Shown: in pieces, positions 35,673 through 48,400 of the stretch
Layout: every line of letters starts with the position of its first letter
How positions within the stretch are numbered: the first letter of the stretch is position 1
Origin: Asterias rubens
Taxonomy: Eukaryota
Assembly (NCBI RefSeq): GCF_902459465.1
Contig: NC_047075.1
Location: 12,214,001-12,278,000 of the forward strand
Length of the DNA stretch: 64,000 bases
Direction: 5' to 3'
Position numbers and translations under genes: made by a program
The notes under the pieces: generated by a model
Databases searched by the model: none
What the model was told of the DNA's origin: nothing
What the model saw: the letters and a program-made list of their open reading frames with translations, nothing else

Positions 35673-36522
35673 TGTAGTGTTTTGTTATCAGTCCGGAGAC
35701 AATTAAGGAAGGCCTGACACCTTGTTTTTGGGTTGCTCACTGATACGTTACTCTGCTGACAGATTTATTCACCATCCGAAGAAAACCTATTACAAACATA
35801 GATCCATAAATCTAATTAATTATCATGCATGTAACGACTAATATTTAAGATTACTTTTCCACAAGTAGCCTTCCACCTCAGTTACACTAAACAAGTCTAC
35901 ATAACACTTAATTATAGGCCGGATACATATCCATACAACGTGAACTTCAGATCATGTGCTGTATATTGATCAACCATTGTTACCCAGTTTCACCCAAATT
36001 AACCCTCTAAATTTCTACTCACCAACCGATCCGTTCCTCTATTTATTGGCAATCAAACTGGCTCCATGAGCGGGTCTCTCCAACTTCTTCCTCCACCCCG
36101 AATGTTGGATTTTACCCTCTCATCATTGTCATACGTGACACTCATTTAGAGACCAACAACGAAAAAGGACGCAACAAATAGACCCCTCCGCCTAAACCGG
36201 CTAAAATTACTACGCTACACACTGATTAATTACCAAACTCACCTATAATGAGCTGAATATTGAAAATAGCATAGTGAATATTTGTAATAATGTGTACAAT
36301 TACATTACATACAAGAATAAAGACGAGATTGAGACCCAAATTCTTTCTCAGATAAAATAATCCAAAAAGTTATGCCTTTTTACATCCTTGACATTTGTAT
36401 CCGTGCGACTACCGTTTAAGTACAATGGCGCCCTCTATCGTTTACCAAAGTCATTCAACAAACTTTTTATCACCGTAATTAACGAAATGCCCATGGGTAT
36501 CATAAAATATTGATTCATCACA
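35673..36522 (-). repeat. 3' LTR (850 bp)
   Basis: Matches 43400-44249; I spotted only one substitution by eye (caccgtaatt vs caccgtgatt). Confidence 0.95.
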
Positions 36523-36534
36523 TTCTCCCCTACT
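36523..36534 (-). promoter_or_regulatory. Polypurine tract (AGTAGGGGAGAA) abutting the 3' LTR
   Basis: Purine-rich run immediately before TGTGATG on the minus strand. Confidence 0.8.
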
Positions 36535-36792: not shown

Positions 36793-37374
36793 TTATGCCC
36801 ATACGCGAGATTCAAAGTACTTTGTTATCTGACGAAGCGTTTTCTCATACAGTGCCATTCCCGAAGTGTTCAGGTGGACCCCATCAAGGTTATACCGAGA
36901 GTTCTTTAACCCTCTGTGCTCCCACAACCACCATTGGTCTTCCACAAAGGTCGACTGCTGAATAAGATCATTAAATCTCTCTGCTCGATCATTAAATTCT
37001 TCGAGTGAGACCTGACCACCCCGTAAACCTCCTGTCCTAGGGAGTACTGGCAGAAACACTATTACCTCTGGGTTAATACCCCTCTTGGGTAACTCATACA
37101 CAAAGTCACAGAGTGAAGAATGCACTTGGTTTGGATTAACATTTTTAGAACACAAATCATTTGTACCCAAGTCAATAATTAAAACTAAAGGATTTGCCTG
37201 CCGTAAATATTCATAATACTTCCTCGGCCTTGCCCGAATCCTACTTAAAGTGAGACCGCCCTCACCAATACATGTAACAGGAACTACCTTACTCTGTAAC
37301 TCAATTTTAAACTGAGAACCTCGCTTCCTTTTCAAGCGTTTAACAAAACTGTGCCCAAAAAGGACAAAACTCAT
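36793..37374 (-). CDS. SGNH/GDSL-type hydrolase (esterase) ORF3 of the Gypsy element, 193 aa, intact
   Basis: Block I LFGHSF, block II GEGG, block III LGTND, block V DGVHLN; Ser-Asp-His triad present. Lies between the pol stop and the PPT. Confidence 0.9.
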   Translation of the reverse strand: MSFVLFGHSFVKRLKRKRGSQFKIELQSKVVPVTCIGEGGLTLSRIRARPRKYYEYLRQANPLVLIIDLGTNDLCSKNVNPNQVHSSLCDFVYELPKRGINPEVIVFLPVLPRTGGLRGGQVSLEEFNDRAERFNDLIQQSTFVEDQWWLWEHRGLKNSRYNLDGVHLNTSGMALYEKTLRQITKYFESRVWA

Positions 37375-37624
37375 TTTCCGTTTAAGAACACAATACTACA
37401 AAAGGGGGAGGAAGCCCTATCAACCCACTCCTTTACCACTTAATCAATTACAAATTTACACAATTTCCTATCACCATGTCAGTCCACTGGTAGCCAGAAT
37501 ACCCAGTGGTGCCCTACAGTAAGGTGTGCCATTGCGGAAACTGGATGCCCCAAGTCTTTCCAGCAAGACAACTCCCTGACCTTCTGCAATCACTGAGAAC
37601 CCCCGCCACCAGAGTAAAGACAAA

Positions 37625-40600
37625 TCACTTAATAGCTGAACAGGGCAATCTGAATGGATTGCTGTGTTTACCCCTTGTAGTTCGTTGAGAACTTCTTAGG
37701 TGCTCAGATGCAGGGCAATGTAAACTTGGGGGCTCCCCTACTTCTACATTGCTCACGCCCTGTAAATCTTGAACCAGAGACTGATCCCCTGAAGGCTCAG
37801 TGTGTAGGACCTCCCAATCTGAATCTCCATCAGACTCATCACTCTCATTTTCTGTGTCACTTTCTGCAAAGGGATCTAACCGCAAGAGTTTTCTATTAAC
37901 TACTCTTTCTGGGCCCCCCTTCAAGGGACGGATACGAAATACATCGCTATGCTCATTTATCCAAACGACCACATATGGGTCTCTTTCAAACTTGTCAGCC
38001 AGTTTGTGGCGTCCCTTGAATGCGCATTTTCTGAGTAGAACATGGGACCCAATCTCAATAGGTTTGCTAGGTTTTACTTTCCTATCATAAGTAGCCTTGT
38101 TGCGATTGCAGCTTTTTGCTACTCGTTCCTTTACTAACTCACTAGCTCTAGAGAGCAAAGAAGATTGTTCTCTGACAAAATCTTGATCCCAATCGTTATC
38201 AGTTCTCCCCAACATCTGGTCTAGAGGTATCAATGGTTCCCTACCAAACATAAGCAAATACGGCGCTACTCCAGTGGTGCAATGCGGAGTAGCATTATAC
38301 ACAAATACAAGGTGCTGTAAAAGGTCAGGCCACCTCCGCCTATCCCGCTCATCCATGGACTTAATGAGTCCAAACAGAGTCCGGTTGAAGCGCTCTGTTT
38401 GAGCGTTCCCCTCGGGGTGGTAAGGAGTTGTTCTGGTCTTTTTCATGCCGTACAATGCACACAATTCCCTCACAACTTCCCCTTCAAAATTCCGACCCTG
38501 GTCGCTGTGCAAACGACAAGGTATTCCATATTTGGAAAACCACTGATTCCTCAAGACTTTGGCAACAGTTACTGCATGTTGATCCTTACACGGATATGCC
38601 TGTACAAATTTTGTATAGATGTCGGTCATGACCAGAACATCCTCATAGCCTCCTGCCCCTCGATCAATTTTGACAAAATCTATGGCTAGCACTTCGAGTG
38701 GTCGAAATGCTAAAAGGTGCCGCATTGGCACTTTTGCTTGAGGCTCTGACGCCTTAGAGATTACACATTGTTCACAATGACCGATATGCCGACGCACTGA
38801 ACCAGCCATTTTGGGCCAAAACACCCGCCGCCTCAGGAGGGCACACGTTCTCACAACACCTTGATGCCCCCACCCATCATGACAACCCTCTAACACCCTC
38901 TGTTGTAAACTTGTGGGCATCAGTACTTGATCTAGTTCACCATGCAATGGGTCCATGACACGACGATGTAAAACACCATCCTTTTCTATGAACCTGGGCC
39001 ACTGCCACAACCACGATTTGATTTCTACTGGCTCCTCCCTTTCAGCCTGAAAAACTTCATTCGGTTTCCAACCTTGATCCCAACGTTCCCAGATACACTT
39101 CAGCACTGGATCAGCCCTTTGTAGGGCAGACAGCTGCTCTGGTGTCCACGATGGGAAAATACCTGATTGACACTTAACCTGTGGAGGTCCAGCCTTTGTA
39201 TCATGAGAAGTTAATACCTTATGTACCTCTATATGTTGCAATGGAACCACTGTGGAGTGGACCTTACATTGCAGTATTTCCTCAACTTCCCCTGTTAGTG
39301 AGTGACTTGGGTTGCGACTTAGTGCATCCGCTACACGATTACTAGCCCCTGATCTAAATTTCACATCAAAGGTAAAAGCTGCAAGTTGTGCTATCCAGCG
39401 CATTTCACATGCGCCCAACTTAGCTGTCTGTAGATAAGATAAGGGGTTATTATCTGTTAGCACTGTAAATGGTACCCCAAGGAGATAATCTCTAAATTTA
39501 TCAACCACAGCCCATTTTAGGGACAAAAGCTCCAACTTAAAAGAACTAAAATCGGGGTACCTAGCTTCAGCCCCCCTCAGCCCCCGACTAGCAAATGCAA
39601 CTGGATGTCTCTTGCCCTGCAAGGAGGCATCTATCTCCAACACAAATGGCCTAGAAAAATCTGGATATGCAAGCACTGGTGCTTGCGTCAAGGTCTGCTT
39701 TAATGTATCAAAGGCCACCTGTGCCTCAGAACTCCAACAAAATGGCGAAGGTTTGGATCTCGAATTTCCCTTAGCCAGTGAGGGCACTAAAGCATGCAAG
39801 GGTGCGGCAATTTTTGAAAAGCCGGGTACAAAGCGCCGGTAATAACCGGCCAGACCAAGAAATGACCGCAATTGTGCCCCTGTCTTAGGTATTGGCCAAT
39901 CCTCAATTCTCTTAATCTTGTCATTGTCTACTGCAACACCCTCTGGCCCTACCACATGTCCTAAGTAAGACACATGCCTACGAAATAACTTGCACTTTGC
40001 ACCCTTGATCTTAAGTCCAAAATCTGCCAATCTAGTGAAGACTCTGTCAAGCCTATCTATGTGTTCCTGTACCGTAGAGGAATATACCAGGATGTCATCT
40101 AAATAGATTAAAAGCTCTGATAAATTCAAGTCACCAAGGCACATCTCCATCACTCTCTGAAAGGTTCCAGGGGCATTTACCAGCCCGAACGGCATTCTCG
40201 TATATTCGAACAGCCCAAAAGGTACTCTGAATGCAGTTTTACTTATTGATTCTGAGTCCATTACAACCTGATGGTATCCATGGGCTAAATCTAATGAAGA
40301 AAAGTACCTTGCACCCTGGAGCGCCTCCAGCGACTCCTCGATACGAGGCAATGGAAATGAGTCTCGTACTGTTTTGGCATTAAGCCTCCTATAATCAACA
40401 CAAATCCTTAGCGACCCATCCTTCTTTTGGACCAATACAATGGGGCTGGCATAGGGGCTTTTACTCTTTTGTATGATACCTTGATCAAGAAACTTCTGGA
40501 GTAATTCCCTAACTTCTCTAAAATGTTGCGGCGGAATTCGTCTGTAAGGCTGGCTAATTGATTTATCATCAGTAGTGTCAATCTTGTGGGGAACCTTATC

Positions 40601-41812
40601 ACAAAGTCCTAAATCCAACGAATTCTGCGAGAACACCTTATCATGTTTCTGAATTAATTGCACAATTTTGTCCTGGTCTTCCTTACACAAATCAGCGCAT
40701 AAATCAAGACTTAATCCATAAGGAAGTTGGTACTCTGACCCATCCTCAAACACATACAACTCTCTTGCCCGTGACTCTACAGCATCCCCCATCTCAATGT
40801 CTAACTCATTGGAATCGACACCAGGGGCTCCCTCAGTACGACCAGTGTCTAAATATTCCCCAGACTCTGACAGACAATGATTCACTACAACATGAACACA
40901 ATCCACACCCGTCTCAAGTGCAACATTTGTCTTTGAGGATACCTCAGTCACGTAAGCAAGCTTTGTGTGTGGGGACAATTCAATCACCCGCATCCCTACA
41001 TTCGCTACCAACACATTTACAGTTCTACCACTAACTACTGTACACAGATCGTAAACGCGGCAATTTCCATCTATGTTACTGGTTTGACCTCCACTATCTG
41101 CACAGCTAGATAGACCCTCAACAAGGACAGTTTGCCCGTCAAGGCTACTTTGATTAGCCTGAACATAGCAGGTTATACTACGCACTTCCCTAGGCAACAA
41201 ATGTACTGGATTTCTACCTGTACGAGCACCCAGTGGGTCCCGTACACACTTATTTGCCCCATGTGACCCCTCAACTACTGGGTTTTTAGTCAGACTATAC
41301 CAATTAATGGCCATTGTCCATGCATCTGCATCTTTTTGTTCTAAATCAACCTCTATATCCTTCAGCTTATGAAGGACATTGCAACCCAACAATACTGGAA
41401 AACTTTTATGATTCCCTGCCTCACCCTTAGGAAATTCTTTGACCACCAAAAAATGTGCATCAATAGTCTGGTTATGTACCATCAGTGGGGCATGTATGTA
41501 CCCCTCAATTGGTACCTCACTATTCCCTGCCCCAAACACACGCAGGTAAGTACCTAGAGTTTTGACTCCACTCAATTTCCCTGCAAGGTGATCCCTATAA
41601 AAAGAGGCGCTAATCAGAGAAGTCTCTGCCCCGGTATCGAGGATACATTCCACTGGCACTCCAGCCAAAGCAATATGAGCCTTGGGGCTCTCTTTTACTA
41701 GACTGGTTAGTATGTCTTCATAAGACTTCTCTGTTAAACTTCCAACTGGTGAGGCCTTTCCAGATTGTTCCTCTGTCACTCGGCCTACAGTGGCAGAGAA
41801 GTCTGGTTTCCC
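37625..41812 (-). CDS. pol: Gypsy pol polyprotein (protease, RT, RNase H with an in-frame deletion, integrase), in the -1 frame relative to gag
   Basis: LDTGA protease; YLDD RT; IDASLQG|KRHPVAFASR RNase H lacking the usual LGAVL.Q strand; HHCC zinc finger; IDF...HSDQG...GNAQTERFNRTL integrase. Confidence 0.95.
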   Translation of the reverse strand, partial: GKPDFSATVGRVTEEQSGKASPVGSLTEKSYEDILTSLVKESPKAHIALAGVPVECILDTGAETSLISASFYRDHLAGKLSGVKTLGTYLRVFGAGNSEVPIEGYIHAPLMVHNQTIDAHFLVVKEFPKGEAGNHKSFPVLLGCNVLHKLKDIEVDLEQKDADAWTMAINWYSLTKNPVVEGSHGANKCVRDPLGARTGRNPVHLLPREVRSITCYVQANQSSLDGQTVLVEGLSSCADSGGQTSNIDGNCRVYDLCTVVSGRTVNVLVANVGMRVIELSPHTKLAYVTEVSSKTNVALETGVDCVHVVVNHCLSESGEYLDTGRTEGAPGVDSNELDIEMGDAVESRARELYVFEDGSEYQLPYGLSLDLCADLCKEDQDKIVQLIQKHDKVFSQNSLDLGLCDKVPHKIDTTDDKSISQPYRRIPPQHFREVRELLQKFLDQGIIQKSKSPYASPIVLVQKKDGSLRICVDYRRLNAKTVRDSFPLPRIEESLEALQGARYFSSLDLAHGYHQVVMDSESISKTAFRVPFGLFEYTRMPFGLVNAPGTFQRVMEMCLGDLNLSELLIYLDDILVYSSTVQEHIDRLDRVFTRLADFGLKIKGAKCKLFRRHVSYLGHVVGPEGVAVDNDKIKRIEDWPIPKTGAQLRSFLGLAGYYRRFVPGFSKIAAPLHALVPSLAKGNSRSKPSPFCWSSEAQVAFDTLKQTLTQAPVLAYPDFSRPFVLEIDASLQGKRHPVAFASRGLRGAEARYPDFSSFKLELLSLKWAVVDKFRDYLLGVPFTVLTDNNPLSYLQTAKLGACEMRWIAQLAAFTFDVKFRSGASNRVADALSRNPSHSLTGEVEEILQCKVHSTVVPLQHIEVHKVLTSHDTKAGPPQVKCQSGIFPSWTPEQLSALQRADPVLKCIWERWDQGWKPNEVFQAEREEPVEIKSWLWQWPRFIEKDGVLHRRVMDPLHGELDQVLMPTSLQQRVLEGCHDGWGHQGVVRTCALLRRRVFWPKMAGSVRRHIGHCEQCVISKASEPQAKVPMRHLLAFRPLEVLAIDFVKIDRGAGGYEDVLVMTDIYTKFVQAYPCKDQHAVTVAKVLRNQWFSKYGIPCRLHSDQGRNFEGEVVRELCALYGMKKTRTTPYHPEGNAQTERFNRTLFGLIKSMDERDRRRWPDLLQHLVFVYNATPHCTTGVAPYLLMFGREPLIPLDQMLGRTDNDWDQDFVREQSSLLSRASELVKERVAKSCNRNKATYDRKVKPSKPIEIGSHVLLRKCAFKGRHKLADKFERDPYVVVWINEHSDVFRIRPLKGGPERVVNRKLLRLDPFAESDTENESDESDGDSDWEVLHTEPSGDQSLVQDLQGVSNVEVGEPPSLHCPASEHLRSSQRTTRGKHSNPFRLPCSAIK

Positions 41813-42893
41813 GACCCTGTGTTTTGTGCATCTCCCATAGCCTGCCCTTGCCCCCCATTCGCTTTTTCGTGAGCCATACGAAGTTTACACTCATGCTTCA
41901 TGTGACCTGGGCGTTTACAATAAAAACAGCGAATCGGGGGCCTGTCCTGCCGCCTTCCTGAGCCTTCATACATGCCCTGGCTAGTTACCGTCCCACTTTG
42001 TTTCACCACTGCTTGCATAAGCGTAGTTATCTGTTCCTGCTGTTTGCAAAGAGTTTCTTGCTGTGTTTGCATACATTTAAGAATCTCTTGTTGTTGTTGC
42101 AACACTGTTTGCAACTGTGTGTCCCCTTGGGACTTGTTAACTACTTGGTTAATGCTAACATTAGCATCAGCCACTGGCTCGTCACTATTCAGATCATTTT
42201 CTGTACCTAGGTGATGCAAGTGCACACTTGCACCACGTCGAGAACCCCGAGGGTACTCCTCTAGATCTCTGAACAACTCGCGAGCTGAATCCCTCATTTC
42301 GGTAAAATCCTGATCCGGTTCAGCCAACTCTAAGCGCCTCAGCTCAAGCCTGACACCTTGATTCCTTGCGCCCGCCACAAACTGCCCAATCAAAACCCTA
42401 TCTCTCAAACCCTTCAATGCATCTTTCTCTGTTTCTGTAGCAACCTCTAAAATCCGATCATGCATTCGCATGAGCGAGCGGGAAAAATCCATAAGGGATT
42501 CGTCTTCCCTTTGCCGTCTTTCAAAAAGGGCCTTCTGAAGGGCCTGTACTGACTCCTCTGCCCCAAACTGACGCCGAAGGAGTTTTTTTAGCGCTGCATA
42601 GTCACCCGTTACATTCTCATTGTGGCATTTGATCTCATCGCGAGCAACACCCCCGCGAGGTGGTGGACAACCACTTTAGCCCTATCTACCTCAGGGATAC
42701 GACATTGTTGCAGATAAACCTCTGCATCTTCAAGCCATTCAATAATGGTCGGATCTCCCGGTTTACTAGGCCTACCATAGTATTTACCCAACTTCAAGGG
42801 CCTCTGAATGACATTCTTCGGTTTATCTTGCCGAAGTGCCTCGGTCAGCCCTGCGACCAAGCGCGTCACAAGATCAGCCTCTGGTACGGCCAT
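41785..42893 (-). CDS. gag: Gypsy gag (PNMA/Arc-like capsid region plus CCHC knuckle), broken by a 1-nt indel in a G-run at 42650-42654
   Basis: Adding one G joins HLAG to GVARDEIKC...QFG...RRQREDESLMDFSR; zinc knuckle CFYCKRPGHMKHEC. Confidence 0.9.
41806..41812 (-). promoter_or_regulatory. Candidate -1 ribosomal frameshift site G GGA AAC at the gag/pol overlap
   Basis: X XXY YYZ heptamer in the gag frame (TCG GGA AAC), 6 codons before the gag stop; a -1 shift enters the open pol frame (GKPDFSATVGRVTE). Confidence 0.75.
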
Positions 42894-43378
42894 TGTGAGT
42901 CAAGAAATTATGATTCAGTTATTGAAGGCTAACCAATTTGTACAATCAAAATTAAGTCATAAACACCTAAACCCAGGTAAATTTGCTTCAACAGGACCGG
43001 TTGGTTTTCACTAGGAATAAAACTAACACCTATACATTATCAGGTAAAATTTACTGACTAACAAACTATATATAGGCCTATCTAAATCCTACCAACAATG
43101 TGCGAATTGAATCGCATAATCCCACCTCACTGCTGATCAACCAGTTCAGTCCAGTTCAGTTCAGAGTCATTAGATTTCACATGTACATGCACATGTAAAG
43201 GTTGAGTTCGTAGCTCCAAAAGGGTCCAACAGCACTACCGCCACCGGGCTTCTCCACTTGCACTGCCACAGGCTATTCCAGTCGCTGTCCTCCACTTGGA
43301 TCCTCACTCCCTCTTCAGAACTCGGCCAATGCCCTCAATGTACTGGACGACAACCAGCAAAGCAGCAGATTAAAGCAA

Positions 43379-43395
43379 CCCCATCCGTGTTACCA
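43379..43395 (-). promoter_or_regulatory. Primer-binding site TGGTAACACGGATGGGG, tRNA-Leu-like by recall
   Basis: Starts with TGG 4 nt after the 5' LTR; tRNA identity not verified. Confidence 0.75.
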
Positions 43396-43399
43396 AATT

Positions 43400-44249
43400 T
43401 GTAGTGTTTTGTTATCAGTCCGGAGACAATTAAGGAAGGCCTGACACCTTGTTTTTGGGTTGCTCACTGATACGTTACTCTGCTGACAGATTTATTCACC
43501 ATCCGAAGAAAACCTATTACAAACATAGATCCATAAATCTAATTAATTATCATGCATGTAACGACTAATATTTAAGATTACTTTTCCACAAGTAGCCTTC
43601 CACCTCAGTTACACTAAACAAGTCTACATAACACTTAATTATAGGCCGGATACATATCCATACAACGTGAACTTCAGATCATGTGCTGTATATTGATCAA
43701 CCATTGTTACCCAGTTTCACCCAAATTAACCCTCTAAATTTCTACTCACCAACCGATCCGTTCCTCTATTTATTGGCAATCAAACTGGCTCCATGAGCGG
43801 GTCTCTCCAACTTCTTCCTCCACCCCGAATGTTGGATTTTACCCTCTCATCATTGTCATACGTGACACTCATTTAGAGACCAACAACGAAAAAGGACGCA
43901 ACAAATAGACCCCTCCGCCTAAACCGGCTAAAATTACTACGCTACACACTGATTAATTACCAAACTCACCTATAATGAGCTGAATATTGAAAATAGCATA
44001 GTGAATATTTGTAATAATGTGTACAATTACATTACATACAAGAATAAAGACGAGATTGAGACCCAAATTCTTTCTCAGATAAAATAATCCAAAAAGTTAT
44101 GCCTTTTTACATCCTTGACATTTGTATCCGTGCGACTACCGTTTAAGTACAATGGCGCCCTCTATCGTTTACCAAAGTCATTCAACAAACTTTTTATCAC
44201 CGTGATTAACGAAATGCCCATGGGTATCATAAAATATTGATTCATCACA
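43400..44249 (-). repeat. 5' LTR (850 bp)
   Basis: Near-identical to 35673-36522. Confidence 0.95.
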
Positions 44250-45419: not shown

Positions 45420-48400
45420 CTATGCACAATGTACAGCCTTGGAGGATAATAGCATGGACAACTTTTGCCAGCAGAGGGCGTTACGGGGCAACAGTTCATT
45501 GAAATATTTATCGATGTGCGTTGTTGACTGATCTGTTGCCATTACACCTGTTACTCTTGGAGATATTTGTGGTGGTCTCCTTACAAAGTTATCTAGAAAC
45601 ATTGTATATTCTATAATAAAGTCTGTACTAATATTATATTGTTCTGGATGTCTTGGTTTGTGTTGTGTTCTTATTAAAATCAACGGCAACGGTTTATGAG
45701 AAAATGTTGGAGATCCGGTTCCGTCGAATTGATCTGTTGAATTCTGTCCTCTGAAGTTTAACATTGCTTCGTCTATTTCATTGTATTTTTATGTGTCATC
45801 TTGTACGGTTGTGTATACTTGAAAAGTTTGTTGTGCTTTATTGGCGGGACTTGGTATTGTCCCACTTTTATAGTTATATGCTCTATAGTTGTCTCCCACT
45901 TGTGTTAGTCGTTCTCTTGCACAGTGGTCAAAGTTTGCAGATGTTTCATTCTTCCAGTAGTTTCCTTGTTGATCTTGTAATCCGAAACAGCTTAGTGGAT
46001 CTGTTTTATCTGCTTGTAGCACTTGTTCTGTTCTTAGTGCCGTCTCACTTGCTATTCCTATTACTGATGTTCCATAGTTTGTTATTGTGTTGTCTACTCC
46101 AATTGTTGCATTTGTATATTGATATTTTGCATTGTCTATATCTCTGCATTGATCTCCTCCGAATATAATCTTTTGTCCCATTGGAATTGTATGTTCCCAT
46201 GTTTCTCCACTTGCTTTTCTTTCAAATGATCCGTAGTCTCTCCAATTTATTTCGTCGTCGCATCCCATAAAAGTGGTCGCTATTACTTGTTTGTTCCAGT
46301 CCATCTATATTTATTACACTTCTCATTGATTCTTCCATTTGTGCTGATATTGGGAAGTGTACCGTTCTTTTTTTGCAAAAAATAGTTAATGGCCTGACGT
46401 TTCGACCCTAGCAGAGTCTTTCTCGAAGGCTAAATGACAACACAACAAACATGAACAGGTAACTAAGTGAAACATAAGCAGTGAAGTGGAAATACATGAA
46501 TGGGGTTAGAAAGCATACATAAAACAGCAGGGGGTAAACAATGAATAGGGGGACAAAAAAGGGGGGGTGAAGGGAAGGGACTGGCTTGACCACAAGCAAG
46601 AATATGGAAACACAAAGGACAACATCAAGGGTGGTGAGGTTGGGTAAAAAGTAATTTATTAGTGAATGAGGCTCAGGCTAAAAGGCTATGGGGAAAAAAA
46701 AAAAAAAAAAGGGGAGACGGAAAAACAAAAGGTATATTACTCGTTTCCTTCTTGGATGTTCAGACCATGGGGTTGAATGGTCTGGAGGCGTCTAATCCAG
46801 AGTTTCTCCCTACTCAAACGCACAGTCTCTCTGTGGTTGCCTAGTGCCTCTATGCCCTGTAAGATCATGTCAGAAATGGAGTGATTAGGAAGATTGAAGT
46901 GATGACCTACAGGTGTATCTAGCTTTTGGGTCTTGACTGTAGATCTGTGGCCATAGAAACGCCTCTTGAGTGTAGTTCTTGTTTCACCTATATATTGAAC
47001 ACCACAGACTCTGCAAGATATGAGATAAATGAGATTAGTGGTGGTGCAGGTGACATGACCCCTTGTCTTATGGGTGGTACCGCCGGTGTTACTGGTGAAG
47101 GAGTCCGATTCCCTGATGTGTTGTCTACAGACGATGCATTTGGAGATGTTGGAACACCTAAAAGTTCCCTGCGGTAGAGGCGGATTAACATCATCATTAA
47201 TGGGAGGGACTTCTGCTCGGACAATGAGATCCCTGAGACTTGGTGGGCGTCTGTAGGCAACTATGGGTTCTTCCTGCACAGCACGTTGAAGTCGATCTGA
47301 TGTGTGAAGAATATGATGGTTAGAACTGGTTATTTTACGAATGGGAGGAAGTGAGGGGTGGAAAGTGACAACAAAAGGAACTTTCCCCGTAGGACTCTGT
47401 TGTTTCTTGGGTTCTTTTTTTGGTAATGTTTTTACATCATCTTCTAATGGATAATGTATTGTGTACCCTTTATTAAGTGATATTTCCATTGGTTTTATTT
47501 TAAATGCTCCACTCTTATCTACGAATAATTCAACTCTTACATCAGTACTTGTTGCTATTTCTAAAGTATTTACATCTCTACCTGGTTTATGTATATATTG
47601 TCTTAAATTCTTTAATTTTATTTTTAATCCTTTTATTTCACAGCAGTCGTATAATGTTGCAATTTCTTGCCATACATTTGGATCCATATATTGTTGAAAT
47701 TGATCTATACCAATTATATGCCACCCCCTTCATAAGTAAATTGAGCAAAATCTGCTGGTTTTGCTGTGGTTGATGGACATGGTATATTTATTTGTTTTAA
47801 CCCTGGGTTTTTATTTTCATCAATTGAATGACTAAATTCTTTCTTAAATACTTGTGGTCCACTATGAACTTTAAGTTGTTGTGGTCTATTTTTTAAACTT
47901 TCTTGATAACTGTCTGGAAATTTAAATTTCCTAATGCACCACCACCACCCCCTCCTGCGCCCCCATCGGCGCTTCTTGCTGCTCTACCCGCATCTGTTTC
48001 ATCTTCCCCATCTACTTCCATTGTTCCTTCTTTGTCGTGTTCCCCGTTATTATTGTTATGTTCTAATGCGTCTTCAAATGTTTCTTCGTCACTATCCTCT
48101 TTATTATTTTTTTCTGGAGGTTCGTAACTCTCTTCGTCACTGTCTAAATCTAAATCGTCGTCACTGTCTGCATCTGAAAAGGAGTCATAAGGGGATTACG
48201 AGATGGAGTCATTATCAATTGGGTCGGAATCATTTTGTTCAGGTGCTGGTATTTCTTTATTTTTCTCTTCAGCTATATCTGTTTTTTTCTTCTTCTTGTA
48301 TATCTCTACCAATACGTTCTAAATTATCTACACTAAAATGTTCAATTGGGATATTATTTACTGGTACACTTTGTAAAGCTTCAATATTCCTGACAGTTTT

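Follow-up and report, generated by a model that had tools for sequence, protein, structure and literature searches.

Structure of the element

The window, the whole 64,000-nt stretch of Asterias rubens DNA that was analyzed, contains a complete Ty3/Gypsy LTR retrotransposon (Metaviridae) of 8,577 nt on the minus strand. It has the long terminal repeats (LTRs), target duplication, primer-binding site, and polypurine tract (PPT) of a Gypsy element, and gag is followed by pol in the order protease, reverse transcriptase (RT), RNase H, and integrase. The features are listed from the 5' to the 3' end of the element, in window coordinates.

43400..44249, minus strand: 5' LTR, 850 nt, TG...CA, one mismatch to the 3' LTR
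43514..43749 (5' LTR) and 36022-35787 (3' LTR), minus strand: GT-AG intron within the LTR, 236 nt, donor TTG/GTGAGT
43377..43395, minus strand: primer-binding site, complement of the host tRNA-Leu(TAA) 3' end with CCA added
41785..42893, minus strand: gag with CCHC knuckle, frameshifted near 42650 in the window copy
41769..41812, minus strand: predicted -1 frameshift signal, slippery heptamer G GGA AAC with a hairpin 6 nt behind
37625..41884, minus strand: pol (protease, RT, RNase H, integrase), from Pfam and comparison of copies
37465..37600, minus strand: structured spacer between pol and ORF3 (long stem-loop and hairpin), z -2.49
37396..37420, minus strand: splice-acceptor-like site (pyrimidine tract, TAG ending at 37396)
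36793..37374, minus strand: ORF3, stand-alone SGNH/GDSL hydrolase (predicted enzyme), 193 aa, 582 nt
36523..36534, minus strand: PPT, immediately preceding the 3' LTR
35673..36522, minus strand: 3' LTR, 850 nt, TG...CA

The window copy is flanked on both sides by the 4-nt target duplication ATTG, and a 4-nt duplication was present in 10 of 11 genomic copies. The primer-binding site was assigned from 16 nt identical to the ends of two tRNA-Leu(TAA) genes in the genome (G000). One of these genes (L035, 1441-1516), possibly a pseudogene, is 7 nt shorter than the other around the D-arm. The frames of gag and pol differ and overlap where gag ends, and the predicted -1 frameshift signal would be used at this overlap. 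Comparison of copies revealed an in-frame deletion in RNase H near 39617 in the window copy of pol. A hairpin-like inverted repeat at 36570-36535, just upstream of the PPT, is kept in the sister family L028. Elsewhere in the window, a very high-copy repeat at 46039-46770, which reached contig depths of thousands in each of the four runs examined, is probably a small transposon or satellite.

ORF3 encodes a predicted SGNH hydrolase

A sequence-only reading of this locus had described a 193-aa SGNH open reading frame with four blocks and a catalytic triad, located between pol and the PPT and inside the LTRs; its coordinates and residues were confirmed. The blocks are G7-H8-S9-F10 (a GHS variant of GDS), G40, G70-T-N72-D73, and D164-G-V-H167, and the SGNH residue set is complete (Ser9, Gly40, Asn72, Asp164, and His167). 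Pfam Lipase_GDSL_2 matched ORF3 with 30.3 bits (E 7.2e-07), slightly below the cut-off of 32.9, and the relative in family L029 cleared this cut-off with 43.8 bits.

The AlphaFold2 model of ORF3, built from a 20-sequence alignment, reached a pLDDT of 93.1, and its top fold matches were SGNH hydrolases only. Foldseek returned platelet-activating factor (PAF) acetylhydrolase (PAF-AH; E 4.9e-08, TM 0.70), and the fold search aligned the model with a GDSL-like lipase (VIA) at Z 17.8 and an rmsd of 2.6 over 173 residues. According to the model, a soluble SGNH fold spans residues 1-192. A PDB search with the single ORF3 sequence gave only spurious repeat-protein matches and one weak GDSL-derived scaffold, and no solved retroelement esterase appeared in the PDB sequence searches or among the fold matches listed. 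With its full set of catalytic residues, the ORF3 product is very probably an active serine esterase.

The product is basic, with a pI of 9.6, and the pI was 9.4-10.7 in all seven proteins examined. Neither a hydrophobic leader nor a fusion peptide nor a transmembrane anchor was found in ORF3, in which the highest 19-residue hydropathy is 0.93. Since it has no hydrophobic segment, the product, to judge by its sequence, is not a secreted or anchored envelope. The description of the gene as env-like in the sequence-only reading therefore holds for its position and fails for its protein.

A profile search retrieved 1,084 homologous clusters at E <= 1e-10, and the best 150 were almost all single domains of about 200 aa. 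Among 144 full-length homologues (170-330 aa), Ser, Asn, Asp, and His were all retained in 129, and block I read GHS in 132. Fused or longer homologues (477-2000 aa) were not found at E 1e-6 among 7,992 candidates scored, which is weak evidence, and none of 44 pattern matches from IMG/VR was a relative. No name was obtained for any of the 10 close-homologue clusters looked up; in a second homologue set, 3 of 52 were named (two uncharacterized bivalve proteins and one automatic esterase label). Sequence of the element is also present in marine metatranscriptomes.

Copies, age, and selection

The genome contains at least 11 near-identical full-length copies, the window copy included. Their paired LTRs differ at 0-4 positions, with the exception of one copy with a damaged 5' end, and this near identity indicates a recent burst. 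Gag and full-length pol frames are both open in 7 of the 10 non-window copies. Absence or neutral decay of the ORF in other copies, which according to the sequence-only reading would have spoken against its proposal, was not observed: ORF3 is intact in 10 of 11 copies, and its dN/dS relative to the sister family L028 is 0.16 (bootstrap 0.09-0.25, 178 codons), a value obtained by the Nei-Gojobori method from this single pair of families, in which ORF3 is 78% identical. In the same pair, dN/dS was 0.26 for gag, 0.28 for the protease region, and 0.09 for RT-integrase. The between-family value rejects neutral decay, and ORF3 is under purifying selection.

Under two organism labels, 94-96% of the words of the element were present in sequencing runs, and run X9 matched it with few differences. 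This occurrence may be due to recent transfer, to a closely related organism, or to a difference in labeling.

Distribution of ORF3 among Gypsy elements

All 17 genomic ORF3 matches of the first search sit behind a Gypsy pol and fall into four families; the pol of the other three families is about 89, 47, and 44% identical to that of the window element. A second genome search added one ORF3 locus behind pol and three decayed SGNH fragments, for which no pol was found within the 9.9 kb retrieved. An SGNH match was absent from all 14 other Gypsy loci, hand-picked out of 150 integrase matches. The ORF3-bearing families were monophyletic in the RT tree (100/98), from which L030 was omitted as too short, and in the integrase tree (100/99). 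Restriction of ORF3 in this genome to one clade with SGNH-less neighbors fits a single gain at the base of this clade.

A metagenome contig (L048) carries a Gypsy pol only 26-28% identical to the window pol, followed by a related SGNH ORF3. In the esterase trees its protein joined the L029 and L030 proteins and did not branch outside them (98; 100/99 in a second tree). An esterase clade of the window, L029, and L030 proteins was rejected (p-AU 0.006), in a test of one case where the group was defined by the pol trees, the esterase tree had already been seen, and the window protein is a long branch. The 14 other loci of the L048 search comprised 5 short contigs with no pol match, 2 bacterial in character, and 7 weak ones that were left out. 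The discordance between the trees suggests that the esterase was likely exchanged between Gypsy lineages.

The Gag protein gave a weak PNMA match (E 0.047, below the cut-off) from the broken window gag, and this match was absent from the L029 gag. The Barthez lineage of Gypsy elements is the source of PNMA genes, according to the available part of PMC3670739.

Acceptor-like site and the region upstream of ORF3

The pyrimidine tract and AG ending at 37396, 21 nt before the ORF3 ATG, are exactly as the sequence-only reading had given them, and no ATG lies between. By an ad hoc score, a simple pyrimidine count with a maximum of 19, this site ranked first among the 121 YAG sites of the element (8,577 nt), in which 3 of 189 ATGs have a site scoring >=14 within 25 nt. 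Three families have a pyrimidine tract with YAG ahead of the ATG, at distances of 21, 18, and 15 nt and with differing tract sequences; the scores in L028 and L030, 13 and 12 of 19, are modest for T-rich DNA. In the fourth family (L029), the nearest acceptor-like site precedes the ORF3 start by about 60-70 nt, with an intervening ATG, and the distant element L048 has no acceptor-like site before ORF3 by the same score. On unspliced RNA, upstream ATGs at 37532 and 37477 (out-of-frame or short) lie between pol and ORF3.

Among the joints listed from contigs of eight sequencing runs, none led to 37395, and contigs of X1, X2, X7, X9, and X12 run unbroken across this position. All eight runs were available as contigs, which lose rare forms, and only X3 and X4, with thin coverage of the element, are recorded as RNA; the missing junction is thus a weak negative. 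A deletion ending at 37395, as a fossil of spliced RNA, was found in none of the 10 other genomic copies. The proposal of a spliced esterase message is partly supported, by the selected SGNH gene and by the recurrence of the acceptor-like site in related families. Splicing of ORF3 to the acceptor at 37396 is considered fairly probable.

Internal deletions in L020 and L027 and a joint 39321-41826 (X2 and X10) were rejected as splicing products, as their ends are not GT-AG. In run X10, contig breaks at 37376 and 37485 imply a variant form, at positions that differ from the acceptor. A second acceptor-like motif at 36775-36752 (CTAAT, pyrimidine tract, and TAG), 40 nt behind the ORF3 stop, is shared by the 10 intact copies and is not evident in the sister family.

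The spacer at 37600-37465 was matched in stability by only 3 of 200 shuffled sequences and occurs twice in the sister family (L028, 2285-2420 and 2630-2765). Two-sided changes were observed in 3 of 41 stem pairs among three sequences. The L030 family has a different duplicated segment, of 66 nt, at the spacer position. An Rfam search of four ORF3 loci gave no match at E <= 1.

An intron in the LTR

In 4 of the 11 copies, neither LTR contains the 236-nt intron, which is excised precisely, and the family LTR thus exists in a long form of 850 nt and a short form of 614 nt. Precise loss from both LTRs is expected from reverse transcription of spliced RNA, and the joint itself was found in contigs of five of the eight runs: RNA of the element passes through the spliceosome. 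The donor is conserved at the same place in the LTR of the sister family, with a diverged intron interior, and the L030 LTR also has a donor-acceptor pair. Donors of the form G/GTRAGT occurred in 3 of 3 LTRs of ORF3-bearing families versus 2 of 7 partly covered LTRs of other families, too few for a conclusion. No similar LTR intron was found in the literature searched (mainly open-access, supplements excluded).

The sequence-only reading had sought the donor of the ORF3 message in the 5' UTR (43378-42894). This location was not borne out, with the best donor there scoring 6 of 9 compared to 8-9 for the donors in the LTR. The donor of the ORF3 message is most likely the one at 43749 in the LTR, a strong donor with evidence of use. 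Because this donor precedes the primer-binding site, a message spliced from it would have no primer site and could neither prime reverse transcription nor give rise to a genomic copy; the absence of the spliced form from the 11 copies agrees weakly with this donor.

In one contig of run X2, the LTR donor (43749) is joined to a host short-chain dehydrogenase exon, at the point directly after that gene's own acceptor. The LTR of this family was not found near those dehydrogenase genes (L046 and L047, around 1500) in G000, and thus the sampled animal probably has a copy inserted at this place, by which the host transcript is driven or trapped. In run X7, depth at the LTR intron boundary was 252 spliced plus 48 unspliced, compared to a mean of 88 in the upstream LTR contig. 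Contig depth is a poor measure, and as a hint these values would place the transcription start 65-110 nt upstream of the donor (43750-43860).

Proposed role of the esterase and alternative explanations

The explanation that we prefer, at about even chances for the whole, is that a young Gypsy clade keeps an SGNH gene for a soluble esterase, made from spliced RNA and acting on lipids within the cell. The small SGNH protein of the third gene, with its full catalytic set, is the predicted enzyme; it would be translated from a spliced subgenomic RNA in which the LTR donor (43749) is joined to the 37396 acceptor, and its service to the element would be intracellular, through binding or deacylation of membrane lipids and not in the manner of an envelope. 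By analogy with the esterase of the zebrafish LINE ZfL2-1, the basic surface may bind acidic phospholipids and aid particle assembly or trafficking at membranes, a tentative proposal that stands nearly as good a chance of being right as wrong. The ZfL2-1-type LINE esterase, the basis for this membrane role, has no detectable sequence match to ORF3 in the PDB searches, and an assay of any LTR-element esterase was not found in the literature.

An internal promoter, or internal initiation on genomic RNA aided by its structure, might instead account for ORF3 expression, the acceptor-like site being a T-rich by-product or seldom used. The eight runs with no listed junction to 37395, the conserved structured spacer ahead of ORF3, and the lack of a scored acceptor in L048 would all suit this route. 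It is nevertheless rather unlikely, since the site tops all 121 in the element and lies 15-21 nt before the ATG in three families, a working donor exists in the LTR, and spliced ORF3 messages are the rule in the insect endogenous retroviruses (ERVs) covered by the available text of PMC12992720. The possibility that ORF3 is a captured passenger with no function for the element can be regarded as negligible. Changes among the 11 near-identical copies are few and uninformative, and rotifer ORF3s evolve neutrally within genomes (PMC5408684), as a passenger would, but the dN/dS of 0.16 between families and the retention of the gene where pol is only 44-47% identical largely refute it.

The substrate may also be something other than a membrane. 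An esterase acting on acetyl or acyl groups of glycans, signaling lipids, or modified proteins could blunt host defense or alter the cell state to the benefit of the element in the germ line. The closest folds, PAF acetylhydrolase, sialate O-acetylesterases, and carbohydrate esterases, are tied within about 1-2 Z, and the module appears mobile between distant Gypsy lineages, as accessory anti-host genes are. Fold matches at 16-20% identity are, however, uninformative on the substrate, and the ZfL2-1 esterase was inactive on histone-derived acetyl peptides in the part of PMC3905857 available, which leaves this host-directed activity unlikely. A substitute for an envelope, which would remodel membranes for particle exit or entry and for spread between cells or hosts, is very improbable. 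It would account for the env position and for the near-identical element under two organism labels, and the idea has been raised for rotifer GDSL ORF3s (PMC5408684; and in the available part of PMC6431247). Yet ORF3 has no hydrophobic leader, fusion peptide, or anchor, the rotifer authors deem an env-like role unlikely for the same lack (PMC5408684), and the second label may stand for a close relative or a label difference. A bolder extension, in which small, basic GHS-type esterases are a module traded among distant Gypsy lineages of aquatic invertebrates, the LTR donor of this clade alternates between the LTR acceptor and that of ORF3 so that the ORF3 message has no primer site, and the enzyme opens an envelope-less, lipid-remodeling route between cells, is speculative and distinctly unlikely as a whole.

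Comparison with known systems

Retroelements of several classes retain SGNH esterases. A hydrolase ORF is part of Ngaro elements. An SGNH esterase is found in ORF1p of CR1/L2, RTEX, and Penelope-like elements, e.g., zebrafish ZfL2-1, whose esterase hydrolyzed pNP esters and bound acidic liposomes, as described in the available part of Schneider et al. 2013 (PMC3905857). On that account, the ZfL2-1 type shares with ORF3 a retroelement-borne SGNH domain, a conserved active site, and a basic protein; there the esterase forms part of ORF1p, following a coiled coil, in elements that have no Gag, whereas in the window element it is a free ORF3 beside Gag.

The errantiviruses (gypsy and ZAM, with spliced env-F) also have a third gene past pol with an acceptor-like site before it, according to the accessible text of Senti et al. 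2025 (PMC12992720). In contrast to errantivirus env as presented there, ORF3 has no signal peptide, fusion peptide, or anchor and has an enzyme fold, and the errantivirus donor lies past the primer site, within gag or ahead of it, whereas the candidate donor of the window element lies in the LTR.

The closest parallel is provided by the Vesta elements of bdelloid rotifers, which have a GDSL/SGNH ORF3 behind pol with intact catalytic residues (Rodriguez, Kenefick, and Arkhipova 2017, PMC5408684) and are mentioned again in the parts available of two reviews (PMC6431247 and PMC5718144). The GDSL esterase as a separate ORF3 is restricted to a subset of Vesta families (PMC5408684). A layout already well documented for the clade was named by the sequence-only reading as grounds against its proposal, and Vesta largely provides one, in rotifer elements and not in this clade. 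An SGNH ORF3 in Gypsy elements outside rotifers was not found in the literature, searched mainly in open-access articles with supplements excluded, and the window family may already be catalogued in Repbase, Dfam, or GyDB. Vesta is the only account of an LTR element of this kind that was found, with few copies and no evidence of selection. The window family adds a young 11-copy element, a bare 193-aa domain, purifying selection, a clade defined against SGNH-less neighbors, and a likely case of esterase exchange between lineages; with these properties, expression and assay of the enzyme should be straightforward, as should a check of the splice model.

Both elements are of the Ty3/gypsy type, with a separate ORF3 past pol that encodes a predicted SGNH hydrolase with no transmembrane or coiled-coil part. 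A dUTPase between protease and RT is a feature of the Vesta clade (PMC5408684), and no dUTPase family was found among Pfam matches to the window pol at E <= 0.1; the window element was therefore not filed as Vesta. The LTR of the window element is 850 nt, compared to 159-551 nt in Vesta, and its ORF3 is a bare 193-aa domain (582 nt), compared to GDSL amplicons of 1.3 kb. Purifying selection between families and the LTR intron also set the window element apart from Vesta. The layout is thus already known from rotifers, and the window family is probably a further, separate lineage.
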